A stretch of DNA of 64,000 nt from an uncultured Methanosarcinales archaeon (GTDB taxonomy: Archaea; Nanobdellota; Nanobdellia; Woesearchaeales; DATGWN01). The translations under genes were made by a program, and so were the position numbers. Positions 20,441 to 60,863 of this stretch are shown here, one piece after another (positions within the stretch are counted from its first letter, which is position 1; the number at the start of each line of letters is the position of its first letter). A model generated the notes under the pieces. The model was not told the DNA's origin, did not search any database, and saw only the letters and a list, made by a program, of their open reading frames with translations. The stretch spans positions 497 through 64,496 of the forward strand of contig CAZUXP010000002.1 in assembly GCA_964624275.1 (NCBI GenBank). The letters are read 5' to 3'.

Positions 20441-20638
20441 TGGATATTACCCTATGATTGGTCTCATTAAACGTGAAATGATAAATTTACACAAAATGTG
20501 TTTTTTTATCAAACGTAGCGGCTCGTAAGATTGCTACGCGCTTTAAACCCTTGACCCATAAGCATATGCTTACGTGCTGCAGCAACAAATTGTTGCGTTT
20601 GATTAGTGTTTAAACGGACTGCATTACATCCGAGTAAA

Positions 20639-20712: not shown

Positions 20713-20780
20713 GTGTGTATGAAAATGAAAAAGCATACCAGCAACATATTTGTTGTATTAATATTACTATTAATAAAAAA

Positions 20781-22252
<1,472 letters not shown>

Positions 22253-40989: not shown

Positions 40990-41080
40990 ATAGTGCGATG
41001 CTTTCAAGACAGTTGTCCATCTTGCCGAAATTACTCTGCATACAAGGAAAAACTGCAAGTTTTTCACGCACAGAAAATCA
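40990..41080 (+). ncRNA. candidate small RNA or conserved intergenic element, copy B
   Basis: Paralog of 11690-11780, with a TATA-like CTTTATAG about 25 nt upstream of the conserved block. Confidence 0.3.
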
Positions 41081-41171
41081 AAAAGATTTTCTCATGAATC
41101 GACCAATTTTGTGATTTTACTTCAAGGCACTATAATTTATTAATGTTGCAAACTAGTACATTTATATATCA

Positions 41172-41918: not shown

Positions 41919-42028
41919 CTAAACACCTGATTATGTATACTAATATAAAAAATCTCTGGTTAGTATAGGAATAGTAATATTTATATAGGTTTGATACTCT
42001 ACACCATACTGTTTGGGGAAATGACATA

Positions 42029-42421
42029 ATGGTAATACTATTTGATCAATTTAATTTGCCGGAAGATATTTATGAAATTATATTTGCAACACCACAACAA
42101 AAAATTGTTGCAAAGGTTTTAATAGACTTCATTAAACAAAATGGTGGAGAAATAAATAAGACTGAAATGTCATATTTTGCAACAAAATTACATGAAGGTA
42201 TTTTGGAAACTGAAATTGATGAACCTGGTTATCGGGGAAAAATTGTCAAGCTTGCATATAATAAACGTCAATTTTATGATCGAATCTTAACTCCCATGAA
42301 AAGCATGGGTTTAATACATTTTAATTTATATAAAAAGACATACAGAATTTCACAAGATTTCTCTAAAAATATTGTAAACATTGGTCTTCTCTGGACGCAA
42401 GAAGTAAGGAGTATTGACTAA
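42029..42421 (+). CDS. hypothetical protein (possible winged-helix)
   Basis: 130-aa ORF with no motif. Confidence 0.35.
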   Translation: MVILFDQFNLPEDIYEIIFATPQQKIVAKVLIDFIKQNGGEINKTEMSYFATKLHEGILETEIDEPGYRGKIVKLAYNKRQFYDRILTPMKSMGLIHFNLYKKTYRISQDFSKNIVNIGLLWTQEVRSID

Positions 42422-45400
42422 TTACTTAGTACCTTTTATTCGAGTGAAAGCACGTTCGATATCATCTTTGCTCCATTCTGTTGTTAATAAAAATTCTCGA
42501 AGACGTTTTTCACTAATACCTTTTTGCAATTCTCGTTTCATATACGCGGTTAGTTGCGGATATGGATCTTGGGATAATGAAACACTAATCGGTGGTTGGT
42601 TTTGTTTAGAAACAGTCTTCTTGCTTTTCTTTGAAATTACAACAGTTGCACCAACAATACCAACAATCATGAATATTCCGACAAGCACTATTAAAACATT
42701 AAATGAAGAGATAATTCTTGATAAAATGGAAGAATCTGTTTGTTCATCTTCAGTTTCATCTTCAGTTTCTGACTGAGGAGGTTGTTGAGGTCTTGGAGTT
42801 GGTGTTGATTGATTCGATAATGATTCTTCTTGTGTTGTATTCTCAACATCTTCATCAGTTTCTTCTGATTGTGAAGGAGGAGGAATTGAGACGCTTCCAC
42901 TTGAACCGCTTCCAGGACTACCACTACCCGGACTACCGCCAGGACTACTTGTTGTACAACTCTGCGTTGTACTAGGTTTATTCGTTGTTAGCCCACAACT
43001 ATTTAGATCTACAACTGTTCGTGTCTGTGTTGAACCTGAACAACTACCCCACGAACCAACTTGCCAATCAACTGTACACATCTGAGTTACCCCTGAATAT
43101 GTTAAACCTGAAATATTGTATAATGTCGAACTACTATTTGTAATGGTGTATTGACTTGGAATTGTTGAAGAATCGTTTAATACTACATAATATTCATTTG
43201 CTGCATCACAATTTGCTGAAAACTGTGATATTGAGGTAAATGATGCATCTTTAATACAAATACTATTATGTTTTGTTAAATCACCAGTTAAATTGATAAA
43301 CAATGATTTAGTCACACCCGAACTTAATTGTAAACCTTTCACAAAAATGCTTGCTTTATTTTCTTTTTGACTTGATTGTAATATTATTCTTGTAAGATTC
43401 AAAGGAGATTGACTTAAATTATCACTATATGAAACAAGTGGTGTATTTGAAGATGATTTTATTTGAACGCTTACTGGATTTTGCGAAGTATTCTGAGTCA
43501 AATTATCACTTCCATTGACAAAAATCATAATATCTTCCTGATTTGTTGCAACATTAGTTGTATTTCCAACAATCGTACCCTCTGTATTTTGACTTATTTG
43601 TTGTGAGTCTAAACTTACATTTACTTGTACTGTTGTTTGATTCACAAATCCAAATCTATCTTCAGCACTAAATGTAATATTAAATACTCCATATTCTAAA
43701 ATATATACTGAACCTAATAACGTGTCACTTGTTATAAATTCACTTGCATCAATTGTTGTACTCCCTATCATATATGATGCATCCGTAATATTCCTATTAT
43801 ATGAAATATTTATTGGAATTTCAAGTTTTGTAATATTTTGATGAGTTGAGTTTGGTTGATCAAATAACGTGTATTGTAATGGCGTTGTATTAATAAAAAT
43901 CTCGTGTGATGCAGAACTCACCCCTACACTATTATTCGCATAAAATATTAATTCATATTCACCATCAGATAAATTAATTACTGTTGGTGCAGTATAGGTT
44001 TGATTATTCGTTGTATTGTAAAAATAGAGTGTGTCTGCATCATCTGCTTCAAACTCAATAAGTATTTGATTCGTGCCATAGTATGAATTATTTAATGGAC
44101 TTATTACAGTGATATTCGGCTTTGAACTTGGTAAAGGAGTTGTTTCATTTATTTTAACACTAAAAGTCCTATTTTGAGATATCGTTTCATTTAAAGTATT
44201 GTTAACCCAAAATGTTAACGTATGTGTTTTATTATTCGCAAATGTGATTAGTTGTGAAAGCGAACTGTTTTGTACAATTCCCAATACATCATTTGTTTCA
44301 TTTGTTACCCACATATACGAAACATTTTCGGATGAGGAATCAAGCGCAGTTGCATTTACCCAGATACTTGTCGTATTATATGTTATATTTAATGGACTAT
44401 TGATTATTAAATCCATACCATTAAAATCCACAGTAATATTAAATGAAGTCCAATTTATATTTCCCGCTTCATCGGTTGCAGTAAAATTAAGTGTGTAATT
44501 ACCATTTGCCAAAATATGGTTAAATGATTCATTGTAAACTAATGTTGTACCATTTCCAAGATTAATTTGCCTTAAAATGTTTTGCGGTAATGAAACATCA
44601 TCACTTACACTAATATTAAATAGTACATTTTTTGTTGTATTAAATACTTCATTTTCTTGTGGACTATGAACAGTAAGATTTGGTTTGATTGAATCTTGCA
44701 CATATGTTACATTAATTTTAATTATGTTTGTATTATTTACCGAATCATTTGCATATAATGTGATTTCATAAGGCGTATTCAAAACTAAATTTGTTAAATT
44801 AAAAATGAGCGTTTCATTATCAGTCGAATTAAAAGGACCAAACTCTCCTGTTTTATTTGTTGTTGCCCAAAATCGAGAAACATCAGATAAACCAGTTTTA
44901 ACTGAATTTGAAAATGCGGTTACATTAATCGTAACATTTTCAGTATATACAATTGAATCAGGCGATAATATTGTTATATTAGGTGCTTTTCTATCAAAAT
45001 AAAATTCAACTAATTCGTTTGAGATTAAACCTTCCGTATCATTTGCAAAAAATTCAATCTCATATTTTTTATCTTGTGTGAATGTCCGCATTACAACAAA
45101 ATCAGGTTCGCTAATATTGTATGGTTTTATATCTTGTGGAACATATGAAACACCGCCTATTTCAAACCATAAATGTGAAACATTCACAAATAAATCTGTT
45201 GCAGTAAAATTAATTAATAATTGGCCATTTGCATTCGTATATATTTTTTCGCTAATTGGACCAGATATATTTAAAATAGGAGGCGCAGTATTATCCGTAT
45301 TAATTCCAAAAAAAAGAGTTTGAGTTGATGAACGATTGTTTGTGTCTGTTACATTTATTTGAACCTTATAAGATGTTTGATTTGCCAATGTTATAGAATC

Positions 45401-48400
45401 ATTCGTATAACTATATAACGCGGGAATCGCTGAATCATTTATGTGTAAATTTGAAGAAATATTACTCGCATTTTTTAATATTTGTGAATGAATGATTGTG
45501 TTATTATTCGCATAAAACAGTTCATAACTTATATACGATAAATTAAATCTATCACTTGTTGAAAAATTTAACAACAGTGTTGTTTCATTATAGTTAACAT
45601 TATTTTGTGGATTATAAATTGTAATTATTGGATCAAATAAATCAATTGTTACATTGACAGTTGTTGCGTTCCAATTTCCTGCTGCATCAGTTGCATTGAC
45701 TTGAAAATAATGAATTCCTTCCGGTATGCCTGTGAAAATAGGATTTGAATTCGCACAATCAACTGAACCAAAACCAACTCTTGTACATTCAACTGTTAAA
45801 TCACTTTCATTGCGATTATCCGAGACATTTACTCCCATCATAACACTATTCACAAAAATAAGCGTGCTATTTGGTTGTAATATTTCCACAAAAGGTTTTT
45901 GCGTATCAGGCAATTCAATCTTAAAACTTTTACTCAAATTATAGACATTATTTGTCGTATCGTTCACGTAAATTGTGATATTATGATTCATTACTTCTAA
46001 TCCATTCATCAAATCAGTTAAATTATATGTTTTATTTAATAAAAACTCATTAGAACCATAAGCCATATCATTTACTGTTGTATTCGTCTCATTCCCATCA
46101 AAATAATACCAAACATGTGAGATATTAATATTATCTGTAATATTTGCGATAATTGACACATTTGATGTATTGAAAACAGGAGTGATTTGTGATAATTCAT
46201 CTAACAACGTTATTTGAGGCTTTGTCGTATCTACTGTAAACGAAACGGTCTCCTCTGTACTCTTATCAAATTGATCACGAACAACAAATGTTTTTGTATA
46301 TATACCATCTGCTAACTCTGAAAAATCATTTGTACAACTAAAATTTTGTTGGTTTATATTTTGACATAATGCAACACTGTCTTCTTTTATACGAACGCTT
46401 TTTAATAACGTATTATCACTGACATTTATGATAATTGATATATCTTCAGTATTATAAAACCCATTTTGAATTGGCGAGATTACATCGATATTCGGTTTAT
46501 TCGTACTCATATTTATAACACGAAAGAACAGTGATTTATTTTGTAGCCATCCATTACTATCATACGCTAAAATTGAAATATTTAATAATTCTTCATCAAA
46601 CTCATTAAAATCTTCTGTAAATGAAAATGAAACTGTATCATTAATTATTGAATCGTTATAATACAAAATCGGATTTGTTATTGAAGTCTTACCTGTAAGA
46701 TTATTATTCAAAAAAACAGTTACATTTGTTAAATTAAAATCATCAAAAATAGTTATATTTATGTTTTGAGCTGTTTTATCAGTGTAATTTTGATTTTGAT
46801 TTGGAGAATGAATAGTTACTACTGGTTTTGTAACATCAACAGTGAAATTTAAAAGTTTATGAGATGTTCTATTTAAATCATCAATTGCAGTAACATTAAT
46901 TTGATATTCACCATCTGTAAAAACGTTTGGAAATGAATTAACGGTATAAGTATCGTCATTAACTAATATATTTGTATTGGCAACAACATTTGTATTATTC
47001 CATAAATTTTGTATTGTATATGAAACTAACGAAATTTGATAGTTATCTGTTACTGTTAAATTTAAAAAGATTGTACTATTTTTGTAAACTTTTTCTAATG
47101 GATTTGATATAGTAATTATCGGTTCATTTGTATTTGGATCATATGCCCGAAATTCTCGTTGCGCAAATAATTTATTTCCATTTACATCATAGGCAGTAAT
47201 GTTTATTCGTAATGGAAAAGCATCAAATCGCGACAGATTTACATTTGAAATATTCCAAAATTCAGTACTGCTTTCTCCAAAAGAAATCGAATTATTTTCA
47301 GGAGTTATATTCTTTTCGGGAGTATAAATAACATATGTTGCATTTTTAACACCAAACATATCTTCAAACGTTAAATTAATGTCTATTTGTGTCGTATTAA
47401 ATAATTGACTTTCATTTATGGAAGTTATATTTACCGTTGGTGGTGTTTCATCTATTGAAAATGTAAAATTCTGTGAGCCTTCATCACCAAAAACATCTAC
47501 CGCAGTTACAAATAGTGTATATGCGCCATCACCTTGCGTAATTTCTGTTTGAACATTTGGCCATAATTCTTGTTTTTCATCGCCAACAACATTTGTATTT
47601 GTTGAAATAACTGTATTATTAGTATGTACATCTTTAACCAAATAACTAATTTCATCTATATAACCTTTACCAGTTACATTGAATAAGAATGTAATGTTCC
47701 GATTTCCAGTTACATTTTGGTTCGGACTTAAAATCGTTACATTTGGAGGATTTAATCCAGGTTGATATGGCGTAAATGAAATAGTTTGTGTATTTTTATT
47801 CCCACTGATATCATATGACTCAACTGTGATGTTTACAACTTCTTTATCAAAAACTGTAAAATCAAAATCTGTTATATTCCAATAAACCTGCTCAACAGGG
47901 TTTGTAAAATTTCCAATTGATTCATTTGTTTGGTTTAACACACCATTTATGTATAATGATGCATTTTTTATACTTACTTCATCAAACAAACTCATATTTA
48001 TATTCAAAATTGTTGTATTATACTCTTGAGCATCTACTGGAAATAAAATGTCAATAGCAGGTGGCGTTGTATCAACTGTAAAATTCACAGTCGCATTACT
48101 TATTTTCCCAAAAGAATCATTAACCTGAAATGTTTCAGAATAAAAACCATCAGATACACTTGATAAGATAATATCACATAGTTTTGTTTTCAATTCATTA
48201 CCTTCACAAAAAGGACTTGGCGCTATTGATAAATTACCGCTCAGCCAAATAACTTTATCTATACCTGATTTATCACTCACATTAATCTGGAAATCAACCG
48301 AAGAACTATTAACTAAATTTTCAGGTTTAATAATAGTTATATTTGGATGTCCTACCGATGGATCAATAACACTAAAATTAACGGAATTTGTAAATGTATT

Positions 48401-49582
48401 ATTTGCAACATCAATTGCAACAAAAGTTATAAGTGTAAATTCTTCATCAGTAAATTCACTCCATTTCGTAACATTACTTTCACTTTGATTTATAACAAAC
48501 CCATCAGATACTGTAAAATTGTACCGGTCTGATTGATTATTATTAAGATAGTAGTATAACTTGTTTACCCCATTTAAATCATTTGCACTTATATTAAGCG
48601 TAACATTCGTATCGTTATATGCTGTTGAAAATGTATTATTTTCTGGTGAAAAAACAGTTATTGTTGGTTTTGTCGTATCTATTGTAAAATAATGAGTTAA
48701 ATTTGTCTTTAAACCTGCATTATTTTCAGCAAAAAAAGTTATGTTTTTTTGTCCATCAATTTCATATGCAACAGTGGTTTCATTCGTATTATTTGTTAAA
48801 ACATCAGAACCTACTGAAGTTTGAAATGAAAATGACTTGACATTTGATTCACTATCATTAATTGAGAATAAAATTGGAATGGTAAATATATTAAAATACG
48901 AATTGTTTTTTGGACTTGTTATATTAAAAATAGGTGGAGTGTCATCTTGAATGACTGTGAATATAACCGTTTGTGAATCATCTAAACCAACCGTATCATT
49001 TGTAGATACTGTTAGATTGTATTGGTTGGAGGGACTTACAAATGATCTATTAAATATCCAAGTATAAGACGTATTTGTTTGCATTTGTAATGAGTCATCG
49101 TCTATTGAAGCCCCACCAACAATACCTAACGTATACCAAAAGGTATGTAATCGAACATTATCATTTGCAAATAATTCAAAACTTATATTATCCTGCGTAA
49201 GATTTGTAATGTAATATGTTTTATTCAATGGAGCTGTTATGTTTACTTCTGGCGGTTGGGTGTCAACGGTAAAAGAAGCAGTAAATATATTTGATATCCC
49301 GCTAGTTGAATTTGTTGCATTAACTGTTATAATCCGAATACCATCTCCTAATATCGTATTATTAAAATAATTTTGGTCAGTAAAACTATCACTAAAATCA
49401 CCACCAAATGAAACAGTGTAACTCGTTGCATTTGCAACGGTAAAATTAACCAAAATAGTATTATAATTAAAAATATCACTATCTTGCGGGCTATGAAAAA
49501 TAACAGACGGAGACGCAAAAACTGTTGAAAGAAAAATCAAACAAAATAACAGAAATACAAATCTCTTTAATTCTTTGTGCAT
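42422..49582 (-). CDS. giant cell-surface protein: signal peptide, about 20 tandem Ig-like beta-sandwich domains, C-terminal TM anchor (S-layer/adhesin candidate)
   Basis: 2386 aa. Cleavable signal peptide (VFA|SP); recurrent ~100-aa modules starting D-T-T/K-P-P-x-I-x-I-x-S-P-x-N-x-x-Y. Very many N-x-S/T sequons. S/P/G linker, acidic TEDETEDE stretch, a single TM (LIVLVGIFMIVGIVGATVVI) and a ~80-aa cytoplasmic tail. Confidence 0.8.
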   Translation of the reverse strand: MHKELKRFVFLLFCLIFLSTVFASPSVIFHSPQDSDIFNYNTILVNFTVANATSYTVSFGGDFSDSFTDQNYFNNTILGDGIRIITVNATNSTSGISNIFTASFTVDTQPPEVNITAPLNKTYYITNLTQDNISFELFANDNVRLHTFWYTLGIVGGASIDDDSLQMQTNTSYTWIFNRSFVSPSNQYNLTVSTNDTVGLDDSQTVIFTVIQDDTPPIFNITSPKNNSYFNIFTIPILFSINDSESNVKSFSFQTSVGSDVLTNNTNETTVAYEIDGQKNITFFAENNAGLKTNLTHYFTIDTTKPTITVFSPENNTFSTAYNDTNVTLNISANDLNGVNKLYYYLNNNQSDRYNFTVSDGFVINQSESNVTKWSEFTDEEFTLITFVAIDVANNTFTNSVNFSVIDPSVGHPNITIIKPENLVNSSSVDFQINVSDKSGIDKVIWLSGNLSIAPSPFCEGNELKTKLCDIILSSVSDGFYSETFQVNDSFGKISNATVNFTVDTTPPAIDILFPVDAQEYNTTILNINMSLFDEVSIKNASLYINGVLNQTNESIGNFTNPVEQVYWNITDFDFTVFDKEVVNITVESYDISGNKNTQTISFTPYQPGLNPPNVTILSPNQNVTGNRNITFLFNVTGKGYIDEISYLVKDVHTNNTVISTNTNVVGDEKQELWPNVQTEITQGDGAYTLFVTAVDVFGDEGSQNFTFSIDETPPTVNITSINESQLFNTTQIDINLTFEDMFGVKNATYVIYTPEKNITPENNSISFGESSTEFWNISNVNLSRFDAFPLRINITAYDVNGNKLFAQREFRAYDPNTNEPIITISNPLEKVYKNSTIFLNLTVTDNYQISLVSYTIQNLWNNTNVVANTNILVNDDTYTVNSFPNVFTDGEYQINVTAIDDLNRTSHKLLNFTVDVTKPVVTIHSPNQNQNYTDKTAQNINITIFDDFNLTNVTVFLNNNLTGKTSITNPILYYNDSIINDTVSFSFTEDFNEFDEELLNISILAYDSNGWLQNKSLFFRVINMSTNKPNIDVISPIQNGFYNTEDISIIINVSDNTLLKSVRIKEDSVALCQNINQQNFSCTNDFSELADGIYTKTFVVRDQFDKSTEETVSFTVDTTKPQITLLDELSQITPVFNTSNVSIIANITDNINISHVWYYFDGNETNTTVNDMAYGSNEFLLNKTYNLTDLMNGLEVMNHNITIYVNDTTNNVYNLSKSFKIELPDTQKPFVEILQPNSTLIFVNSVMMGVNVSDNRNESDLTVECTRVGFGSVDCANSNPIFTGIPEGIHYFQVNATDAAGNWNATTVNVTIDLFDPIITIYNPQNNVNYNETTLLLNFSTSDRFNLSYISYELFYANNNTIIHSQILKNASNISSNLHINDSAIPALYSYTNDSITLANQTSYKVQINVTDTNNRSSTQTLFFGINTDNTAPPILNISGPISEKIYTNANGQLLINFTATDLFVNVSHLWFEIGGVSYVPQDIKPYNISEPDFVVMRTFTQDKKYEIEFFANDTEGLISNELVEFYFDRKAPNITILSPDSIVYTENVTINVTAFSNSVKTGLSDVSRFWATTNKTGEFGPFNSTDNETLIFNLTNLVLNTPYEITLYANDSVNNTNIIKINVTYVQDSIKPNLTVHSPQENEVFNTTKNVLFNISVSDDVSLPQNILRQINLGNGTTLVYNESFNHILANGNYTLNFTATDEAGNINWTSFNITVDFNGMDLIINSPLNITYNTTSIWVNATALDSSSENVSYMWVTNETNDVLGIVQNSSLSQLITFANNKTHTLTFWVNNTLNETISQNRTFSVKINETTPLPSSKPNITVISPLNNSYYGTNQILIEFEADDADTLYFYNTTNNQTYTAPTVINLSDGEYELIFYANNSVGVSSASHEIFINTTPLQYTLFDQPNSTHQNITKLEIPINISYNRNITDASYMIGSTTIDASEFITSDTLLGSVYILEYGVFNITFSAEDRFGFVNQTTVQVNVSLDSQQISQNTEGTIVGNTTNVATNQEDIMIFVNGSDNLTQNTSQNPVSVQIKSSSNTPLVSYSDNLSQSPLNLTRIILQSSQKENKASIFVKGLQLSSGVTKSLFINLTGDLTKHNSICIKDASFTSISQFSANCDAANEYYVVLNDSSTIPSQYTITNSSSTLYNISGLTYSGVTQMCTVDWQVGSWGSCSGSTQTRTVVDLNSCGLTTNKPSTTQSCTTSSPGGSPGSGSPGSGSSGSVSIPPPSQSEETDEDVENTTQEESLSNQSTPTPRPQQPPQSETEDETEDEQTDSSILSRIISSFNVLIVLVGIFMIVGIVGATVVISKKSKKTVSKQNQPPISVSLSQDPYPQLTAYMKRELQKGISEKRLREFLLTTEWSKDDIERAFTRIKGTK

Positions 49583-49659
49583 TTGATAACCCCTAGGTAT
49601 ATTTAAGAGCTGTTTTATTTATAAATATGTCGATTTTTGTCGACTCAAAATACTTAAAT

Positions 49660-50646
49660 TTAATCTTCTAGATTCTTTAAATGTTGGCGAAACTCTTTAC
49701 TTTTAGTTATTTTGTTTAAAAGTTCATTAGATTCAATAAATATACCAGGATATTCTTTTACAAACTCCGCAACATCAATTTTTGATAAAATATCAGTTTT
49801 AGATAAATACACGTAAGTTTTTTTCTCAAGTTTGAGTGTTTTTTCATACAATTTTTTTTGTGTTTCAATATCAACAGCGTTATCTAAATCAAAGACAAAG
49901 ACAAATGCGTTTGCAACATGTTTCATCGCCAAATACGCTTGTTTTTCGATATTATTCATTTTGTCTAAGCGATTTAGAGTTCCAGGGGTATCAATAAATT
50001 GTATTTTTTGATAATTATATTCAGCATATCCTAAATTTAATGATTTAGACGTAAACGCATAATCAGCAACTTTTGCTTTTGCACCAGTCATCGTGTTTAA
50101 CAATGTTGATTTACCTACGTTTGGAAAACCAACTAAACAAATTGTAAAAATATTGCTTTTTATAACAGGAAATTGCCGAAATGTTCGTCTTGCCTCCTCC
50201 AAATACGCTAAATGCTCACGTAATTGTTTACAGACTGACGCGCAACGACCCATATATCTTTTATGATGCATTAACACATCACTTGATGTTTTACTTGAAT
50301 ACAATTTTCGATTTGTCACTTCACTAAATTCAGAAATTTTTTGTAAACCCCACACAAGTGCACCAAATGAACGTTTTAAATACGAATAATCAAGTGTTAA
50401 TTTTGTGAGTTCTAGATAAAATGGAGTTAGTTCATCTAATTTTGGAAAACTGCTTAAAATGTTTTGAAACTGTTTTGTCAAAACATCATGCATCATTCGT
50501 ACCTTTACTCCTGCTTTTTTTTTGTTTCGCAAAAGAGCATCTCGAACAGTAATGTTTTTCTTATCACATTCTTCTCGAGCTCGACGAATAGCTAACTCTA
50601 AGTAAAACGAATCAGATTCAATTTTTCCCATATCTGCAAAACTCAT
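49660..50646 (-). CDS. NOG1-family GTP-binding protein
   Basis: NOG1 N-domain followed by the G domain (GFPNVGKSTLLN, DTPG). Confidence 0.8.
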   Translation of the reverse strand: MSFADMGKIESDSFYLELAIRRAREECDKKNITVRDALLRNKKKAGVKVRMMHDVLTKQFQNILSSFPKLDELTPFYLELTKLTLDYSYLKRSFGALVWGLQKISEFSEVTNRKLYSSKTSSDVLMHHKRYMGRCASVCKQLREHLAYLEEARRTFRQFPVIKSNIFTICLVGFPNVGKSTLLNTMTGAKAKVADYAFTSKSLNLGYAEYNYQKIQFIDTPGTLNRLDKMNNIEKQAYLAMKHVANAFVFVFDLDNAVDIETQKKLYEKTLKLEKKTYVYLSKTDILSKIDVAEFVKEYPGIFIESNELLNKITKSKEFRQHLKNLED

Positions 50647-51299
50647 TTTTTACACACATAAAACGCATGATCCAATTCAAATGGATCTAATGTACGTTGA
50701 TCAACTATTTTCATCTTTGTTTCAATATGAATTTTTGATTCTGCAAAAATCACTTTTGGTTTTTTAGTAATATCAATTGAACGAGATTTAAGTGCTAATA
50801 ATCCAAAACCAGTGTCTTTGAGATACGCCTCACAATTTTTTAAAAAAATTTCGACTTGATTTGGTTGGGCAATGTCCATAAATACAACATCAACTTGCTC
50901 CAAAAACTGTGAATAACTTAATGGATTTGAAGCACTTGCATAAATTGAAATAATATTGTTTCTTCTTTGGCTTACAAATGCCATTTCTCGCAAAACTCTT
51001 GGCGCAACATCTAATGCATACACACGACCATCTTTACCCACAATATCTGAAACGTGTGAAACTGTTGTTCCTGTTGAACAACCTAAATATAAAACCGTGC
51101 TTGCAGGTTTAATACCAATTTGCGAAACGCCTTTTTTAAGTGCAGCACCTAATTTACTTCTTTTTGGATCCCATTGGCGAAATTCATGTCCGTCTCGTTT
51201 AAGTAATCTTTCACCATATATACAAACACCTGGAACTAAGTTTTTAGTAAAAAGCCATCCTTTATCTTCATAAATTCCTTGTAACCTTGTTTGTTTCAT
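50643..51299 (-). CDS. flpA: fibrillarin-like rRNA/tRNA 2'-O-methyltransferase
   Basis: FRQWDPKRSKLGAA, VLYLGCSTGTTVSHVSDIVG, VYALDVAPR and DVVFMDIAQPNQ. Confidence 0.9.
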   Translation of the reverse strand: MKQTRLQGIYEDKGWLFTKNLVPGVCIYGERLLKRDGHEFRQWDPKRSKLGAALKKGVSQIGIKPASTVLYLGCSTGTTVSHVSDIVGKDGRVYALDVAPRVLREMAFVSQRRNNIISIYASASNPLSYSQFLEQVDVVFMDIAQPNQVEIFLKNCEAYLKDTGFGLLALKSRSIDITKKPKVIFAESKIHIETKMKIVDQRTLDPFELDHAFYVCKK

Positions 51300-52291
51300 T
51301 TTGAGACTCCTTCGATTTTTTGTATGAATTTTGTGGAATCAAAATCTGTACTTTTAAAATAATCAGATTTAATTGCAAGTGACAAGGTATTTGCAAACAT
51401 TCGTGCAACACGACCACGATTGCTTGGTTTTGCATTACTCACAAATTTGTGTTGAAACAAAATTCCATATTTAGGAGGTTTTGCCCCTGTTTTTAAATGT
51501 CTAAACAATGCTTTTTCCGCACCTAAGACTTGTATTGTTGACGACGTCATTTTTGTTAATCGTGAAAAACTACCAGCCATCGCAAGTAATTTCCCACCTA
51601 TTTGTGAACCTGCGATTTCAGTGAAATATGGAGCATGTTCGAGCATTTTTTTTTCAACATACAATTTAAGTTTTTCTTGTTCATCAATAAGATTTTTTAT
51701 AGAAGTACATAAGGATTGAATCGTTTGTTCATCCTCTAATTCAAATGATTGTCCAAGCGAAATGTTTTCATATAATCTACTTTTTTCAAGGAGTTGTGTA
51801 TATCCTTTTGTTGCAACTGCCGAATCTGTTTATTCATGCGAAGAAATTTTTTTGGAAAATTCAGGTAATTGCCATTAAAACCATACTCGAACCCGTATTG
51901 TAAATAAAGTAATCGATTTTGGAATCTCATCAACTGTTCGAACTGCTTGACACACATGTAAGTCCCACGTCACATACTCTTGAAGTTTCTGTGCAACATG
52001 TGCATATGCAAATGTTTTTGTTTTTGAAAAATTGGGGGGTTGGACTTTACTCAAAATTTTTCGTAAAATTGATAAATCTATTAAATTCGAAAAACCTTGA
52101 TCTTTATAGTTACAAAAATACACTTTTGCATCAGAAAATGATTCAAATAATATTTTTTCAGTCTTACTTACTTTCTGTTGAGCTATCTGCAAAACATCAC
52201 TTTCTGATAATTTCTGTGACTGTAATAATTGTAATTGATCATCAAATACGTACACAGTATCAACAGTTGCATATAAGTATCGAACATTCAT
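51296..52291 (-). pseudogene. nop5: Nop5 (Nop56/58) C/D-box snoRNP protein, reading frame interrupted twice
   Basis: NOP domain (APYF..IAGSQIGGKLLAMAGSFSRL...VLGAEKALFRHL...PKYGILFQH) and N-domain are in different frames, joined by a third frame carrying the ...FPKKF... middle segment. T6 and T7 runs lie at the junction region. Could be a sequencing artefact. Confidence 0.55.
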
Positions 52292-52388
52292 ACATTATGA
52301 GACTATGGGGTATTTATAAAAGTTGATGTTTTACTGGTTCAGTACGCAAAATCTGGTCCCATATTTTCTCCTATAATTTAAGAATAAA

Positions 52389-53039
52389 TTAATTTACGAA
52401 ACTAAATTTAGGAAAACGTGCTAATACTGCTTGTTGATCAAGTATTGAACTTTTTAATTTTGCAACATCAGTATGCACAAAACTAGCATCAGTTTGCAAT
52501 TTAAAGCTTATTTTTTGCACTAAGAGAAGTTGGCGATCTAATACATCAAATAAATTCTTTTTTTGAAAAATCGCATCAACTGATTGTTGAAATTGTTGAT
52601 AATCCTTATATGCGTCTTCATAATACCTTGTTTGAGAGATAATTGCATATTCTTCTAATGGAGTAAAAATTGACCCAAAATGTTGTTTAACAAAAAATGC
52701 GTTTTTTTGGACAAACTCTTTTTCTTCTTCATGTAATTCGCGTTTTTCAATAGTATGGATGAGAGTTGGTTTTTGAAATTGAAGGTTTTGAAGTAGTGGT
52801 TTTTCTTTCGTCAAAATAAGATTACCTAAATTTCTAATTTGGTTATCCAATTGGAAAACTTGTTGAAAGTGTAAACTATCAATAATACTTTTTTTCATAC
52901 TTAAAACAGGATGGTGTTCAAATATTCGCTGAATGTGTTGAAGTTGATCCATATACTGTAAATCAAACTCCGGATGGATATGGTTTAAATGCATAAATGT
53001 ATTTATGTTATTCTTATTTATAAAAGTTGATGTTTTCAA
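52389..53039 (-). CDS. hypothetical protein
   Basis: 216-aa ORF with no motif; lies between the S2P and nop5 genes. Confidence 0.4.
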   Translation of the reverse strand: MKTSTFINKNNINTFMHLNHIHPEFDLQYMDQLQHIQRIFEHHPVLSMKKSIIDSLHFQQVFQLDNQIRNLGNLILTKEKPLLQNLQFQKPTLIHTIEKRELHEEEKEFVQKNAFFVKQHFGSIFTPLEEYAIISQTRYYEDAYKDYQQFQQSVDAIFQKKNLFDVLDRQLLLVQKISFKLQTDASFVHTDVAKLKSSILDQQAVLARFPKFSFVN

Positions 53040-53042
53040 AGA

Positions 53043-54269
53043 CTATGAAAAGAAAAACGGTACTATCAATCCTGCAAGTAACATAGCTAAAAATACATTA
53101 CAGACCCAAACATACACTCTTTTTGCAACTTTTTTATTTTTAATAAACTGATTTGACATTGTTTGTACAATTTGACCACCATCAGTAATAAATAACGGTA
53201 AAAGATTTGTTAAACCAATGAAGAGGTTAAACAAGAATAACCATCGAACCAGTTCCATAAACCACCAAAAAATAGAACCTTGAGTCGAATATCCGTCTTT
53301 ATAATCTCGTTCATTATATAATCCTATTACTCCAATAACTGCTCGTGATTCATTATCTTCTGCAGTCGTTGTCTGGATTGTTTTTACTTGTAAAGTATTA
53401 TTTTCATAGTACCCAAGTGTTATATTATCGCCGACTTGAATGTTTTCTTGCATATCGTTGAAAAATATTGATGCATTCGTAATATTTTGTCCATTATAAT
53501 AGGTATAAACTTGACCAGCTTTTACTCCAGCTAATTCTGCAGGCATACTTTCGGTAATTTCCATAAATGACATTCCAACCGGCTCAGTCATATCTGCATA
53601 AAATGGTTGCATTACAAAAACTAATAGTAAAAAAAACGGAATTGCTAATAGAATGTTTGAAACAGGACCTGCGGTTAAAACTGCGTAACGTTTATACGGT
53701 TTAGCTTTTTCAAACTTTTTTGGATCAGGTTCAACAAATGCAGCAGGAATTATTGGTAAGAGTATGTTTAATACCGCAAATCCACTACTATTAACTGGTA
53801 TTTTATAATAACGTGCAACAACACCATGTGCAAATTCATGTACAGTTGCCATAATAAAGATTGCAATAATCCAATGTGAAAATGAAAGATACCCTAAGTA
53901 CGGAATATTCGTAAATGGAAGTGCTAACGTCACTCCTTGAACTTGTGGAGTATTAAATAATACATACACCAACCAAAACATTGCTAAGGATTGTATAAAC
54001 ATTCCAATAAAACCTAAAATAACTGAAATGAAACCAAATAATTTGATAGTTAAGGGATGTTTTTTTGCCATTGAATCCATAAACCCAATACCCCAACCAG
54101 TTTTAACAAGAATCATTGATATAATTGCAAAAGGACCAAATGACAGAATTTTTTGCGTATGAATTTTGTCTTTATTTTTTTTAAGATACACAATGAGCGT
54201 TAAGATTACAATCGCTAAAAGCATGAATTCGTATCGTTGTGTACTTATAAACTCTAAAAAACCACTCAT
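53043..54269 (-). CDS. site-2 protease (M50 family intramembrane metalloprotease) with PDZ domain
   Basis: HEFAHG in a TM helix, a PDZ-like AELAGVKAGQVYTYYNGQNI segment, and a C-terminal LDGG-type motif FITDGGQIV. Confidence 0.8.
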   Translation of the reverse strand: MSGFLEFISTQRYEFMLLAIVILTLIVYLKKNKDKIHTQKILSFGPFAIISMILVKTGWGIGFMDSMAKKHPLTIKLFGFISVILGFIGMFIQSLAMFWLVYVLFNTPQVQGVTLALPFTNIPYLGYLSFSHWIIAIFIMATVHEFAHGVVARYYKIPVNSSGFAVLNILLPIIPAAFVEPDPKKFEKAKPYKRYAVLTAGPVSNILLAIPFFLLLVFVMQPFYADMTEPVGMSFMEITESMPAELAGVKAGQVYTYYNGQNITNASIFFNDMQENIQVGDNITLGYYENNTLQVKTIQTTTAEDNESRAVIGVIGLYNERDYKDGYSTQGSIFWWFMELVRWLFLFNLFIGLTNLLPLFITDGGQIVQTMSNQFIKNKKVAKRVYVWVCNVFLAMLLAGLIVPFFFS

Positions 54270-54500
54270 GTTTGGTTTGAGAATTAACGTGTTTATAAAA
54301 TTTGCTTTTGTTAAATGTCAAATAGTATGTTTAACTTTTCTTGAAGTTTTAAAAGTATACTCTTAAAGTATTTTTTATTTCGAAACATAAAATCTTCAGT
54401 TATTGGAAAACCTTTCTATTATATTGAATTTTTATAAACAAACAAATACCACCTACTACTGAAACTTTTGTTGCAGAAATTAAAAAATCTCTCAAAAAAT

Positions 54501-57500
54501 CTAAGGACAAGTACTCCAAATTGGTTCATGTTCGGAGTTATCAAGAGAAAAAATATATCTCCAATAATCTGATATTCCAGAAACACACCATGAAGATAAA
54601 TCAAAAGAGTACGAACTAGAACCAAAATTAAACATCCCGTTCATGTCAACAACATTACTCACATCCCAGCTACTAATATCTTGATTAAACACTCTAGCAT
54701 TACTAAACATACTATTCATATAAACAACATTACCGACATCCCAATTATGTAAGGGTTGATTAAAGGAACCCGTGCCATAAAACATATGACTCATGTCAAT
54801 AACCGAAGAAACATCCCAATCATCAATATTTTGGTTAAAACTATCTGCACCATAAAACATATGGCTCATATCAATAACCGAAGAAACATCCCAATCACCA
54901 ATATCTTGGTTAAAACTATCTGCATCATAAAACATATAACTCATATCAATAACATTATTTACGTTCCACTCGTTTAATGATTGATTAAAAGAGGACGTTT
55001 TTCGAAACATCTCTTTCATACTAATTACATTTTGTACATCCCAACGATTAATATCTTGATTAAAAGAAATAGCACCATAAAACATACGACTCATATCAAT
55101 TGCGTTATTCGTATCCCAATGACTAATATCTTGATTGAAAGAATTCGCAAATGCAAACATCTCACTCATATCAATTACATTACTCGTATCCCAATGACTA
55201 ATATTTTGATTGAAAGAATTCGTGTAATAAAACAATCTACTCATATCAGTAACATAAGAAGTACAAATTTTTGTATAATCACTCATCGATGGATTCATTT
55301 CTTTTTTTATAATATTATCGTCAACAACTAAATAACTTTCACCATTTACCGAAACAGTACTTCCAACCAACGCATTATTACAAACTATTGTACCAGAACT
55401 AAGTTTTTGAGCTTCTCTAGGTCTATTATCATCATTACAGTTCCAAGTCGGATAATTTTGAGACAATAGGTGTGAAAGTGCAAAATTATAAGGCTTAGAA
55501 TTTATTCTTGGAGTACACCAACTACTAATATCTTGATTAAAATTAATTCTACCCCAAAACATATTATCCATATTACCAACATTACTCACATCCCAACTGC
55601 TAATATCTTGATTAAAAGAATCAGCACCATAAAACATACCCTTCATATCAATAACATTATTAACATTCCAATCGTCAATATCTTGATTGAAAGAAGTAGC
55701 ATCTCTAAACATATAATTCATATTTGTCACAGAACTTACATCCCAATTATGTAAGGGTTGGTTAAAAGATATTGCATCTTTGAACATGCCACTCATATCT
55801 CTAACATTGCTAACATCCCAACTACTAATATCTTGATTAAAACTACTTGCACTCTCGAACATGTTACTCATATATCGGACATTACTGACATCCCAGTTAT
55901 CCAATGGTCGATTAAAACGTGCTCCGAACATGCCACTCATATCTCTAACATTACTGACATTCCAATTATTAATACCTTCTGGATACGATCCGGAAAGCAT
56001 ACCACTCATATCTCTAACATTACTAACATCCCAATCACCAATGTCTTGACTAAAAGAAATAGCACCGTGAAACATATCACTCATATCAATAACAGAACTC
56101 ACGTCCCAATGACCAATATCTCGATTAAAAGACCAAGCTCCATCAAACATACCAGTCATATCTTTCACATTACTCACATCCCAATGACTAATATCAGGAT
56201 TTAAAGACCGCGTTAAATGAAAATCCCAAGTTGAAAAAATATCATTCATAACAGTTACATGAGAAGTACATATGTTAGGATATTCATTAAAATTTCTTTC
56301 GAGTCTGAAATTAAGAAACATTTCATCATTCACAACTAAGTAATCTTTCCCATTAACAGTGACATACTCACCAGGAGGGGTATCTTTACAAGTGATAGTT
56401 TCCATAGACGTTTCAGATGGTTCAGTTTCCACTAAACCCCTATCAGGACAACTTCCCCAATCCGGTTTAAATTTTTCAATTAAATTTTCATTAAATCGAA
56501 TTGGTTCATCTTGTATATTGGAAACGCACCACATAGATAAATCCTGATAAAACATATCGTTTTGATAAAACATCGCACCCATTTCAGTCACTGCGCTAAC
56601 ATCCCAATTACTAATATCTTGGTTAAAAAAAGAAGTTTTATGAAACATACCACCCATATCTCTAACATTACTTACATCCCAATTATGTAAGGGTTGATTA
56701 AAAATTTCAGTATTTCCAAACATACCATTCATATCAGTAACAGCACTTACATCCCAGTTATTTAAGGGTTGATTAAAAACAGCTCCATTAAACATACCAC
56801 CCATATCTCTAACATTACTTACATTCCAATTATGTAAGGGTTGATTAAATAATTGGTTATCTTTAAACATTCCACTCATATCGACAACATTACTCACATC
56901 CCAATTACTAATATCTTGATTGAAAGAATTCGCACTATAAAACATCCTACTCATATCAACGACATTACTCACATCCCAATTACTAATGTCTTGATTAAAT
57001 GATCTTGCGTGAGCGAATAAATCACCCATATCAGTCACATGTGAAGTACAAATATTAGTAAAATCATCGCTTAGAGGATCCATATCATGTAACATAGTAT
57101 TATCAACAACTAAGTACTCATTACCTTCAACAGTAACCGTTTCACCAGGAGTTGCATCATAACAAATTATTATGCTTGCAGATAATAAACCGCCACTATT
57201 CGTATTCGAAGTACCCGTATTACTATCTCCCGAATTATCATTATCGTCAGTAGTATCATCTCCCGAATTATCATTATCGTCAGTAGTATCGTCTCCCGAG
57301 TTATCATTATTCGTATTCGAAGTGCCCGTATTACTACTTTGATCATTTTGTGATTGACAAGAATTCACAGTTGATAACTGTATTGAATCATCTTTTGGAC
57401 ATTGGACAAACCAACTATTAAAACCATATGACGAACCATCTGCTAAACTTGGATGGCATTCTCTTGACCAACAACTTCCTTGTGTGCATCCAGTCCCCCA

Positions 57501-58601
57501 ATCAGTTTTCCAGTATTGTGTTTCTTCCATGCAACCATTTTCGTCATAAACTATGTTTGAATCGAAATTAGTATTTTGATTACCATTATTATTCGAATTA
57601 TCATCAACCGTATTAGTATTATCACTTAAATCACCAGTGTCATCATCACCAACAGAACAAACTGCAACACAATTAGTAGTACATTGCTGAGAATCAGTAT
57701 GACGACAAGCACTTGCACATGAATTAAATGTACCACCTAATTCATCACACGAATCAATTGAAGTCAAACCTTCACACTCATCAAATTCTGACAACCACGT
57801 GCCACCTAAATTTTCACATCGTGATTGAAGAGTTTCTCCCACGTCACCAGGGCCATTATTTGGAGGTGTTGCTGTTACCGAAGTACTTCCAGGAAATCCT
57901 GAAGCGTCATCTGGTGGTTGAATACATGCACCATCACTACAACCATAATCACAATCAACACTTACTGATTTTCTTAAGTTATCTTCGCAATAATTTTCTG
58001 CGAGTGCATTATTAGAACAAGAATCTTCATATTCATACGAATCACTATTAATCATTCCACTAACAGTTCCTTTTTCATAAATGTTATATCCGCCATCAGT
58101 ATCTTCACAAGTATTTTGCGAAGCTCGTGTAATTTCAAATATTTCAATTTGCCACCGATTATCATAACAGTCAAAACTGCCGTCCGAATCTCGATTACAA
58201 GAATATCCTGCAACAAAAAACTCATCGTTTCCATCAGTCATACTCAGTAAATAACTACATTCAAAGTTTAGCGTAAAAGATTCTTCGTCAACGTACCATT
58301 TCTTGTTATCAACGGAATATTCGGCCCATGACGAATCAGATTCATCATAATAATAGACTGTTGACCAGATAAACTCATTTTCTGTTGGTTCAAAAGTCAT
58401 CGTGACACTTTCACCAGAATTACATTCAATTATATCTTCACTAACAAGAGTACTGCCAGAAAAAGGAATTGTGTCAGAAACAACTGATCTGTAAAAATTC
58501 CCTGCAACACCTAGAGCGTTTGGTTCAGGCGGATATTGTGAAGCGCAACCGGCTACGAAGAATAAACAAATAAACATTAAGAATATTAATTGATACCTCA
58601 T
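54501..58601 (-). CDS. giant DUF285-repeat surface lipoprotein
   Basis: Lipobox signal peptide MRYQLIFLMFICLFFVAG|C. Cys-rich N-terminal modules; an N/D/S/T-rich low-complexity spacer with GDDTTDDNDNS repeats. Three arrays of ~26-aa FNQDISxWDVSNVxDMSxMF units (Pfam DUF285 type), each preceded by a CxxTPPGExVTVxGxxYLVV module. Confidence 0.8.
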   Translation of the reverse strand: MRYQLIFLMFICLFFVAGCASQYPPEPNALGVAGNFYRSVVSDTIPFSGSTLVSEDIIECNSGESVTMTFEPTENEFIWSTVYYYDESDSSWAEYSVDNKKWYVDEESFTLNFECSYLLSMTDGNDEFFVAGYSCNRDSDGSFDCYDNRWQIEIFEITRASQNTCEDTDGGYNIYEKGTVSGMINSDSYEYEDSCSNNALAENYCEDNLRKSVSVDCDYGCSDGACIQPPDDASGFPGSTSVTATPPNNGPGDVGETLQSRCENLGGTWLSEFDECEGLTSIDSCDELGGTFNSCASACRHTDSQQCTTNCVAVCSVGDDDTGDLSDNTNTVDDNSNNNGNQNTNFDSNIVYDENGCMEETQYWKTDWGTGCTQGSCWSRECHPSLADGSSYGFNSWFVQCPKDDSIQLSTVNSCQSQNDQSSNTGTSNTNNDNSGDDTTDDNDNSGDDTTDDNDNSGDSNTGTSNTNSGGLLSASIIICYDATPGETVTVEGNEYLVVDNTMLHDMDPLSDDFTNICTSHVTDMGDLFAHARSFNQDISNWDVSNVVDMSRMFYSANSFNQDISNWDVSNVVDMSGMFKDNQLFNQPLHNWNVSNVRDMGGMFNGAVFNQPLNNWDVSAVTDMNGMFGNTEIFNQPLHNWDVSNVRDMGGMFHKTSFFNQDISNWDVSAVTEMGAMFYQNDMFYQDLSMWCVSNIQDEPIRFNENLIEKFKPDWGSCPDRGLVETEPSETSMETITCKDTPPGEYVTVNGKDYLVVNDEMFLNFRLERNFNEYPNICTSHVTVMNDIFSTWDFHLTRSLNPDISHWDVSNVKDMTGMFDGAWSFNRDIGHWDVSSVIDMSDMFHGAISFSQDIGDWDVSNVRDMSGMLSGSYPEGINNWNVSNVRDMSGMFGARFNRPLDNWDVSNVRYMSNMFESASSFNQDISSWDVSNVRDMSGMFKDAISFNQPLHNWDVSSVTNMNYMFRDATSFNQDIDDWNVNNVIDMKGMFYGADSFNQDISSWDVSNVGNMDNMFWGRINFNQDISSWCTPRINSKPYNFALSHLLSQNYPTWNCNDDNRPREAQKLSSGTIVCNNALVGSTVSVNGESYLVVDDNIIKKEMNPSMSDYTKICTSYVTDMSRLFYYTNSFNQNISHWDTSNVIDMSEMFAFANSFNQDISHWDTNNAIDMSRMFYGAISFNQDINRWDVQNVISMKEMFRKTSSFNQSLNEWNVNNVIDMSYMFYDADSFNQDIGDWDVSSVIDMSHMFYGADSFNQNIDDWDVSSVIDMSHMFYGTGSFNQPLHNWDVGNVVYMNSMFSNARVFNQDISSWDVSNVVDMNGMFNFGSSSYSFDLSSWCVSGISDYWRYIFSLDNSEHEPIWSTCP
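54580..57040 (-). repeat. arrays of ~78-bp coding repeats (DUF285 units) within the lipoprotein gene
   Basis: At least 25 recognisable FNQ(D/P)(I/L)xxW(D/N)VSxVxDM(S/G)xMF units at the protein level. Confidence 0.7.
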
Positions 58602-58688
58602 ACGTAATTTTCGGATGATAATTATTTATAAATATATCGATTTAATTAAAACAGAAGTTTTATTAAAATATATGGATTTACTCAATAA

Positions 58689-59321
58689 ATGGCAGAGTTA
58701 CATTGGCTAGGACACAGTAGTTTTTTACTCGAATCGCGGCAATTAAAAATATATATCGATCCATTTCAATTAACCAAAGATGAGCCAAAAGCAGATTTTA
58801 TTTTTTTGACACATTCTCATTATGACCATTTCTCACCTAAAGATTTACGCAAAGTTTCAACAAATAATACTGTATTCATTACAAGTCAAGATATTCAGTT
58901 AGAAGACATACCACATAAAGAACATATCAAACTTAAACCAAATGAATCAAAAAGATTAGAGTCCTTAATAATTCAAACCGTTCCTGCGTATAATATTGAT
59001 AAAAAATTTCACCCAAAAGAAAATGATTGGATTGGATTTATTATTGAATGGGAACACACTCGATATTATTTTGCAGGTGATTGTGATAGAATACCAGAAT
59101 TTGAAAAATTAACTGAAATTGATATTGCCATAGTGCCAATTTCTGGAACATATGTCATGACTGCATCAGAGGCCGCAAAAGCAGTTTGTGAGGATTTAAA
59201 ACCTCAACTTGCCATACCTTGTCATTATGGATCTATTATTGGAACTGACGAAGATGCAGACGAGTTTTTCCAATTAGTTTTAGAAAAAGGATATGTTGCC
59301 CAAATCTTAAAAAAAGAATAA
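58689..59321 (+). CDS. MBL-fold metallo-hydrolase
   Basis: THSHYDH metal-binding motif, a distal D and H, 210 aa. Confidence 0.8.
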   Translation: MAELHWLGHSSFLLESRQLKIYIDPFQLTKDEPKADFIFLTHSHYDHFSPKDLRKVSTNNTVFITSQDIQLEDIPHKEHIKLKPNESKRLESLIIQTVPAYNIDKKFHPKENDWIGFIIEWEHTRYYFAGDCDRIPEFEKLTEIDIAIVPISGTYVMTASEAAKAVCEDLKPQLAIPCHYGSIIGTDEDADEFFQLVLEKGYVAQILKKE

Positions 59322-59333
59322 AACAAAAGAAAT

Positions 59334-59498
59334 CTATTTCTTCTTTTTTGGTCGAAGTTTATTTGTTCCTTGCGGACCTCGACTTTTGATTTTCCCAGCT
59401 AACACTTTGAGTGGTGGAGCTCGAATTTTTTTCTTCGTTACTTTATCCACATATATATTTTGGAATAATCGGGTATTTGCTTCTTGAAATTTTGCCAT
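59334..59498 (-). CDS. small basic protein resembling ribosomal protein L40e but lacking the zinc-ribbon cysteines
   Basis: 54-aa ORF MAKFQEANTRLFQNIYVDKVTKKKIRAPPLKVLAGKIKSRGPQGTNKLRPKKKK. The N-terminal MA(R/K)F.EA..RlF and C-terminal LRPKKK fit L40e; no Cys. Below the 60-aa track cutoff. Confidence 0.4.
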   Translation of the reverse strand: MAKFQEANTRLFQNIYVDKVTKKKIRAPPLKVLAGKIKSRGPQGTNKLRPKKKK

Positions 59499-59518
59499 TA
59501 TATTAATCTCCTAATTAA

Positions 59519-59920
59519 TTATTTTACTTGTTTAATTACTTTATCTTCTAAAATTTCCCAATAAAGTATTTCTTTTCCTTCCACGACTTGTCCCTGCAAA
59601 TCTTCAGGAATGGGTAAGTCAAATGTTTCATATGTTTCCATATCCATTAAATTTGCTAAATTATCAGTAACAGAAAGCACTTGTGCAGATTTTTTTCCAA
59701 CTATCGGAACTTGAACTTCATCGTGACCCGGAAGAACTAAATTTCGTTTTTTCCCGTCAAGCATACCTACAGCCATCATATTAACCTTTGCATGACCGTG
59801 TTTTCCTGGACGTGATGTTTTTGTGTCAACAATTTTACATGCAACCCCATCAACAACAATAGAATCACCTTTTTTTAAACTTCCGACGCTTGCGTGTTTT
59901 GTTTCTCCTGCCATAATCAT
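59519..59920 (-). CDS. eif5a: translation initiation factor 5A (aIF5A)
   Basis: Hypusination loop TSRPGKHGHAKVN and an OB-fold C-terminus. Confidence 0.9.
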   Translation of the reverse strand: MIMAGETKHASVGSLKKGDSIVVDGVACKIVDTKTSRPGKHGHAKVNMMAVGMLDGKKRNLVLPGHDEVQVPIVGKKSAQVLSVTDNLANLMDMETYETFDLPIPEDLQGQVVEGKEILYWEILEDKVIKQVK

Positions 59921-59963
59921 AACCTCAATAATAAGTGTATGTCTTTAAGAAAAAAATGGGCAT

Positions 59964-60863
59964 TTATAAATCTTTATGTTTTTTCTGATGATATTTGTGA
60001 ACGATAATTGGAATAATACAACCAATACCCAAGAATACTAAGGCAAAAATTCCGTGATTCGGTGATTCTAAAACTGGAATAATTTGGCGAATTGGTAAAA
60101 TTAAACTCCCTAAAACAACGCCCATTAACAAATACACTGTTTTATCATGCGCAATTTTGAGTAAGTAAGATACGAATCGACTAACAACATACATTCCAAC
60201 AACTGCACCAATTGCAAATAAAAGTAATATCCCAATATGTGAAAATGGTGATTTGATTGCGTTAATAATTTGAGAATATTTTCCTAATAGTAATAATATA
60301 TATGATCCTGAAATTCCTGGTAAAAAGAGTGCAAAAATTCCAAAAAATCCGCTTAATGTAAACATCCACCAAGAATCAGGTGTTTGAGTTGGAATTAAAA
60401 CCGCTAATACAATTCCCAAACTTCCCCCTAGTACAAAATATGCAAATAAATCGAGTGTTTTCTCATGTACTCTTTCTTTAAGATAAAATAAACTTACAAT
60501 GATAACTCCTACAAAAAAACTCATTGTTTGCACAAAATAATAGGTTAATAAATACGAAACACCATGTGCTCCAAAAAATATTGCAAGCCCAATTCCTAAA
60601 CCTAATGGGACAAAAAACTCCCAATCTGTTTTCAAAAAATGAATTCGTGATTTATGCCACGCAGATGTTCTCCCCGTAAACAAAAATTTAAAAAAAAACA
60701 ATAACCAAAAAATGTTGAGTTCTTTAATTCCCGTAATCAGTCGTTCATATATTCCCGTAATAAATGCAATAGTTCCACCAGAAATTCCTGGAACCAAATC
60801 ACAAATTCCCATTGTGGTTCCTTTTAAAAAAAAAGGAAATTTATCTGTCATACTATTACGCAT
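59964..60863 (-). CDS. DUF368-family membrane protein (putative polyprenyl-phosphate transporter)
   Basis: Signature GICDLVPGISGGTIAFITGIYERL, repeated as LFLPGISGSYILLLLG, and about 8 TM helices. Confidence 0.5.
   Translation of the reverse strand: MRNSMTDKFPFFLKGTTMGICDLVPGISGGTIAFITGIYERLITGIKELNIFWLLFFFKFLFTGRTSAWHKSRIHFLKTDWEFFVPLGLGIGLAIFFGAHGVSYLLTYYFVQTMSFFVGVIIVSLFYLKERVHEKTLDLFAYFVLGGSLGIVLAVLIPTQTPDSWWMFTLSGFFGIFALFLPGISGSYILLLLGKYSQIINAIKSPFSHIGILLLFAIGAVVGMYVVSRFVSYLLKIAHDKTVYLLMGVVLGSLILPIRQIIPVLESPNHGIFALVFLGIGCIIPIIVHKYHQKKHKDL

Follow-up and report, generated by a model that had tools for sequence, protein, structure and literature searches.

Does the archaeon behind this locus lack a full-length Nop5 while its fibrillarin remains intact, or does the assembled sequence misrepresent the gene? 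The C/D-box methylation particle is built on Nop5 as its scaffold, a protein whose N-terminal domain holds fibrillarin and whose C-terminal NOP domain binds the L7Ae-bound guide RNA. In the stretch of DNA analysed here (64,000 nt, hereafter the window), the preliminary description had recognized an interrupted nop5 beside an intact fibrillarin, and this was borne out: three minus-strand ORFs of 138 aa (52291-51875), 73 aa (51957-51736) and 122 aa (51664-51296) are listed within 51296-52291, against one intact 218-aa PF01269 protein for fibrillarin. The locus comprises the following features.

52389-53039, minus strand: ORF of ~200-216 aa without a Pfam family, directly upstream of nop5
52311-52320, minus strand: putative TATA-like box (TTTATAAATA), 20-29 nt ahead of the nop5 start codon, as read by eye
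51296-52291, minus strand: nop5 (Nop5/Nop56/58 family), 332 codons with two internal TAA (PF01798, PDB alignment, homolog HMM)
50643-51299, minus strand: fibrillarin, intact, 218 aa (PF01269)
49660-50646, minus strand: NOG1-type GTPase, last gene of the conserved nop5-fibrillarin-NOG1 string (PF17835, PF01926, PF06858; same order in the relative L005)

The locus holds nop5, fibrillarin and NOG1 as an ordinary gene string and belongs to a small, AT-rich DPANN (Woesearchaeota-like) archaeon. The window is archaeal, carrying a 16S-tRNAAla-23S operon and an archaeal RNase P RNA at a G+C content of 32%, and the named relatives of its Nop5 are annotated mostly as Woesearchaeota or Nanoarchaeota. The closest database homolog is P0001 (GCA_007116655.1, contig SKHY01000158.1), a Nop5 of 331 aa whose gene lies at L003:952-1947; together with P0002 (Candidatus Woesearchaeota, GCA_047603085.1; 325 aa) it shares 55-56% identity with the window Nop5. 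In the relatives L003, L004 and L005 the nop5 gene is intact. In L003 and L004, nop5 is preceded by an unannotated ORF and followed by fibrillarin and the first part of another gene; in L005, fibrillarin, NOG1 and a giant surface protein follow nop5. The fibrillarin ATG of the window overlaps the nop5 TGA by 4 nt (ATGA), the same 4-nt overlap occurs in L003, and fibrillarin starts 4 nt past the nop5 end in L005. The window fibrillarin is equal in length to the relatives' proteins and 80-81% identical to them. The upstream ORF of L003 and L004 encodes 204 aa with no Pfam match on record, and its likeness to the window ORF at 52389-53039 is one of position alone; the latter may be functionally linked to the nop5-fibrillarin-NOG1 string.

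Translation of the three minus-strand frames indicated that the region from the ATG at 52291 to the terminal TGA at 51298-51296 forms one frame of 996 nt, or 332 codons, which is shared by the 138-aa N-terminal piece and the 122-aa NOP-domain piece. With the stops written as X for the domain search, the single-frame translation matched the Pfam Nop domain PF01798 with 156.5 bits (gathering cut-off 25.4) over residues 120-317, across both stops. Using phmmer against the PDB, the Nop5 chains of S. solfataricus and P. furiosus were found at E ~1e-36 in a gapless alignment that spans both stops, and the query stretch RVRVWFxWQLPEFSKKISSHExTDSAVA aligned without a gap to S. solfataricus Nop5. An alignment with P0001-P0014 takes in all of residues 1-120, with the FCNYK and VTWD motifs; the Pfam N-terminal model gave no match to the window Nop5 at E<=1. 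No gap was needed to align all 332 codons with the P0001 gene, and 188 residues are identical. The single frame reached 360 bits with an HMM of 120 homologs, versus 278 bits for a three-piece frameshift model, and no match to this HMM was found in the other two frames. The earlier view that the three nop5 parts each occupy a different frame is refuted by this single gapless frame and its higher score, and the middle piece is an accidental overlapping frame.

51736-51957, minus strand: spurious overlapping 73-aa ORF (the 'FPKKF' middle piece), without a Pfam match and in a frame without a Nop5 HMM match

The homopolymer runs to which the break had been attributed do exist. The T7 run at 51847-51853 corresponds to the two lysines of the conserved SKKI, and the T6 run at 51781-51786 falls in LEKS, where E169 and K170 match FEKV of P0001; since both runs translate in frame to homolog-matching residues, neither holds an indel. 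Indels associated with these runs were thus not borne out as the cause, the codon alignment being gapless and both runs of correct length. Correcting single-base indels and re-translating, as the preliminary description had proposed, is expected to repair nothing, as the alignment to archaeal Nop5 is already gapless. Because the lesions are two substitutions, it is the reversion of both that would repair nop5.

The sole defects of the nop5 frame are two TAA codons located 45 bases apart.

51875-51877, minus strand: in-frame TAA at codon 139, GAA or GAG (Glu) in relatives
51830-51832, minus strand: in-frame TAA at codon 154, TAT (Tyr) in the two closest relatives
51833-51874, minus strand: the 14 codons between the stops (WQLPEFSKKISSHE), with the invariant Pro143 and the near-invariant Glu144

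Among the 120 homologs, column 139 is occupied by E in 59, S in 41, G in 9, A in 6, N in 4 and D in 1, and column 154 mostly by K, A or T, with Y in the two closest relatives; a stop codon was found at neither column in any of them. Relative to the closest relatives, the lesions are two single-base substitutions, GAA to TAA at codon 139 and TAT to TAA at codon 154. As assembled, translation would end after 138 residues. The stretch between the stops shares 13 of its 14 residues with P0001, and four of the six nucleotide differences are synonymous, a pattern which suggests that it was translated in the nop5 frame until recently.

Long-standing loss of Nop5, with the gene persisting as an old pseudogene, was ruled out by the gapless alignment, the invariant residues and the lack of gene-wide acceleration. 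No indel relative to the P0001 gene was found over the 332 codons, and the family-invariant residues are all retained. The three-way amino-acid identities are equal, at 56.5, 55.7 and 58.2% for nop5 and at 80, 81 and 78% for fibrillarin. Codons 161-223, which follow the second stop, are ~50% identical to P0001 (counted by eye on the alignment). A gene-wide relaxation of constraint was not seen in nop5, the relaxation being confined to codons 124-160. The lack of indels, the kept invariant residues and the equal distances argue that one protein was translated through essentially all of the lineage history. On these comparisons, the stops would be either recent or not real.

Both stops lie within a patch that departs from the rest of the gene.

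51812-51922, minus strand: patch of lost family conservation, codons 124-160, containing both stops (by conserved-column deviations)

In this patch, 7 of the 13 columns that are at least 80% conserved among the 120 homologs deviate in the window (N128T, L130F, K132I, L134V, E136V, Y138F and F155T). No homolog of the 120 exceeds four deviations at the same 13 columns, and the closest ones have one. At the 55 conserved columns elsewhere, the window has 8 deviations, as many as P0001, and the difference between the patch and the rest of the gene is supported by a Fisher test (p = 0.005). In the relatives, codons 124-160 constitute the best-conserved part of the protein, being 92% identical between L003 and L005; the window is 59% identical to L003 over these codons. 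The window-specific base changes in the patch fall at codon positions 1 or 2 in 16 of 18 cases, and their overall density is not raised. Several patch codons carry two or three changes, and each TAA needs one; these multi-hit codons argue that the divergence of the patch is old and real rather than the product of a few read errors. The multi-hit replacements would also predate the two stop codons, judging from the number of changes per codon. The patch hints at something lineage-specific in this helix of Nop5: the KRLREWY helix of the Nop domain, normally near-invariant, carries the lineage-specific radical replacements K132I, E136V, N128T and F155T. A sequencing-error spectrum was considered as an explanation and set aside as uninformative, the transversion excess in the patch (13:5) being the same as that outside (76:41).

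The assembled sequence was compared with Logan contigs, all of run SRR11308339, that were found by exact-protein look-ups.

41003-45954: contig L009, with three mismatches (41027, 41037 and 41094), within ~90 nt of one contig end
46311-51478: contig L001 (full contig), 100% identical over the compared part 46643-51478
51479-51931: stretch uncovered by the SRR11308339 Logan contigs, holding both stops (from the ends of L001 and L002)
51932-56672: contig L002, with one mismatch only
51934, minus strand: the mismatch between window and L002, codon 120 GTT (Val) versus ATT (Ile), 3 nt from the L002 end
57799-60567: contig L008

The four contigs were 99.9-100% identical to the window. Logan contigs of this run break every 3-5 kb, and the other gaps, at 45955-46310 and 56673-57798, lie inside giant surface-protein genes. 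No repeated k-mer that would explain the contig ends at 51478 and 51932 was found in the window; by contrast, an exact repeat of at least 31 nt lies at the far end of L002. The mismatches to the Logan contigs are all close to contig ends, and a de Bruijn assembly would be expected to behave in this way where strains vary. Codon 120 is ATT (Ile) in P0001, as in L002. The disagreement between L002 and the window at this codon, 3 nt from the contig end, marks the reads of SRR11308339 as heterogeneous there and shows that they contain a second sequence version exactly where the aberrant segment begins. The breaks and end mismatches of the contigs suggest strain microdiversity in that sample. Pattern scans of genome_contigs and metagenome_contigs for an alternative version of the region gave no match, the source record's own 116-aa fragment (P0134) was the sole match when proteins were searched with the middle region, and exact look-ups of the 138-, 122-, 73- and 116-aa products were without a match; an intact version of the middle segment was accordingly not recovered in the contig collections or the protein searches. 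The preliminary description was right to have a technical cause weighed first and to regard the reads alone as decisive.

We consider it somewhat probable, at roughly 0.6, that the nop5 of the window is a non-representative, disabled version of the gene, being either a defective allele present in part of the population or a local consensus error. What was observed directly is the single frame with its two TAA codons, the sense codons at both sites in relatives, the lack of gene-wide decay and the disagreement of independent contigs at the region edge. Under the first of the two forms, the population would be heterogeneous and a null nop5 allele may be carried by part of the cells; under the second, a local consensus error would have arisen in a poorly resolved stretch of the assembly. 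In either case, the lineage would have used nop5 as a continuous 331-aa protein until very recently, and we infer that an intact version exists in the population. The other window genes that were checked are intact, which also speaks for this explanation. Against this explanation, two independent errors or mutations 45 nt apart are each improbable a priori, and the patch around the stops, with its old, multi-hit replacements, hints that something specific to this lineage may affect the helix.

The main rival, which we regard as unlikely yet serious, holds that all cells carry both nonsense codons, that Nop5 is a very young pseudogene, and that fibrillarin either still persists or functions independently of the guide particle. 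Both stops are present in the deposited sequence and the gene calls of the source contig include a 116-aa C-terminal piece, as such a loss would have it, and K132I and E136V in the conserved KRLREWY helix beside the stops fit a weakened function; the coincidence of the stops with the relaxed helix is the one feature that keeps this reading alive. A passage in PMC7994747, citing Tomkuviene 2017, states that a fibrillarin-Nop5 heterodimer can methylate RNA in vitro without a guide. If full-length Nop5 were truly lost, fibrillarin together with only the 138-aa N-terminal fragment might take part in guide-independent methylation. A fixed loss is opposed by a nop5 that shows neither an indel nor gene-wide acceleration and keeps all invariant residues, by the intact fibrillarin with its 4-nt coupling overlap, and by the independent contigs that disagree with the window at the region edge. 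Moreover, few archaeal ribosome-biogenesis factors are as ubiquitous as fibrillarin (PMC8481954). We give little credence to the proposition that both UAA codons are genuine and fixed, such that they are either decoded or full-length Nop5 has been lost while fibrillarin was kept. Were the stops fixed, this would be a rare archaeon with fibrillarin but without full-length Nop5, or a case of archaeal UAA readthrough; either would interest specialists in RNA modification or translation, and nothing found here favours that outcome. For annotation, the gene is best described as a nop5 with two internal stops and not as a frameshifted gene, and both the gene family and the kind of lesion are already well known.

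The idea that the UAA codons are decoded, through a suppressor tRNA or through readthrough that depends on context, so that full-length Nop5 is still made, has a very slim chance of being correct. UAA recoding is not known from archaea. The surroundings of the stops, the 14 codons between them and the downstream NOP domain do look selected for translation in frame, as decoding would require. However, TAA is the commonest genuine terminator, closing 28 of the 51 window ORFs of at least 120 aa, and genome-wide reassignment of TAA was rejected on this count. None of the 120 homologs has a stop at either position. The RNA around and after the stops forms no stable structure, with an MFE of -22.3 kcal/mol compared with a shuffle mean of -24.5 kcal/mol (z = +0.63). 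The sole tRNA in the 64-kb window is tRNA-Ala(TGC), and no other in-frame stop was found among the window genes checked. Because TAA is a common terminator, the relatives have sense codons and no RNA structure accompanies the stops, programmed recoding is unsupported. An mRNA intron or a translational bypass over the stops was excluded by the 13/14 identity and the invariant residues of the stretch between them. A diversity-generating retroelement or gene conversion was likewise rejected, the window being without a second copy of the segment.

Fission of the gene, into a 138-aa fibrillarin-binding domain and a separately initiated C-terminal NOP fragment acting as two proteins, is less credible still. 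Short forms do occur, as many of the listed DPANN Nop5 homologs have only 244-248 aa, with matches that cover ~61-73% of the 331-aa query. One such short locus, L007:2501-3235 (GCA_900089805.1), is directly followed by fibrillarin, has a divergent eRF1 as its upstream neighbour ~75 nt away and is without a separate N-domain ORF, so that the covalent link between the N-domain and the NOP domain appears dispensable in some lineages. In the window, however, no ATG, GTG or TTG was seen by eye in the first 54 codons past the second stop (155-208), yet conservation persists over codons 140-153 and 161-223. The first in-frame start codon comes 55 codons past the second stop, and a restart at the TTG at 51664 or the ATG at 51646 would remove helices that even the 244-aa homologs keep. 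The Pfam Nop domain begins at residue 120 and also encloses the break. Least of all can two frame shifts by homopolymer indel errors account for the locus, a model that has the T6 and T7 runs of the region in its favour and is refuted by the gapless 332-codon alignment, by the runs being in frame and by a score 82 bits worse than that of the in-frame model.

Compared with the characterized archaeal Nop5 (aNop56/58, PF01798; S. solfataricus 3id5, P. furiosus 2nnw/3nmu), the window protein shares the Nop domain, the conserved helix with the FPE motif and the GAEKALFRH core, and fibrillarin likewise lies immediately downstream. It differs in being shorter (331 aa versus ~370-390 aa), with a coiled-coil that is reduced as in the Woesearchaeota relatives, in giving no Pfam N-terminal match and in carrying two internal TAA. 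The length equals that of P0001 (331 aa; 325 aa in P0002), whereas both relatives have GAA or GAG and TAT at the sites of the window's TAA codons and retain the KRLREWFE helix of the consensus, from which the window departs. Young pseudogenes and nonsense alleles in MAGs similarly show single-base stops in an otherwise intact gene, and consensus errors at strain-variable sites similarly make contigs break and disagree at one place. What differs here is that the two stops lie 45 nt apart within an older, lineage-specific divergence.

The remainder of the window was surveyed alongside nop5. When 40 other ORFs were compared with Pfam, those that were matched appeared intact, most with full domain coverage, and nine were without a family. 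A truncated ParA-like gene at 12565 was considered and rejected, as the P-loop lies upstream in the same frame and the apparent break stems from an ATG-only ORF filter; an open frame upstream of the Nre gene was likewise rejected as broken coding sequence, being low-complexity, AT-rich and probably non-coding. Pattern searches for C/D sRNAs with rRNA-complementary guides gave nothing convincing within the 64 kb, which is a small sample for this purpose. Further features are given below.

13219-13517, minus strand: archaeal RNase P RNA
15432-16577, plus strand: MCM-like protein, 381 aa, with a partial MCM P-loop domain (profile 121-211 of 224) and lid
16629-17321, plus strand: Gins51-like gene, adjoining the MCM-like gene
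17531-22252, minus strand: complete archaeal rRNA operon with 16S, tRNA-Ala(TGC) at 20639-20712 and 23S
23362-24340, plus strand: toxin-antitoxin-type pair of an NTase (wHTH region) and a HEPN protein, with a 29-nt overlap
42422-49582, minus strand: giant predicted surface protein, 2386 aa, rich in Asn-x-Ser/Thr sequons, with a C-terminal membrane anchor
54501-58601, minus strand: giant predicted surface protein, 1366 aa, with 8 DUF285 repeats (787 bits)
60924-61907, minus strand: arylsulfotransferase-like (ASST) gene
61982-62829, minus strand: toxin-antitoxin-type pair of an NTase followed by an unannotated 143-aa ORF, with a 4-nt overlap
63002-63976, minus strand: arylsulfotransferase-like (ASST) gene

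No rRNA introns are apparent, both rRNA models matching end to end. The MCM-like protein has an unusually small size for an archaeal MCM. In the relative L005, too, a large protein comes after NOG1. The two ASST-like genes, ~1 kb apart, are unusual content for a small DPANN genome.
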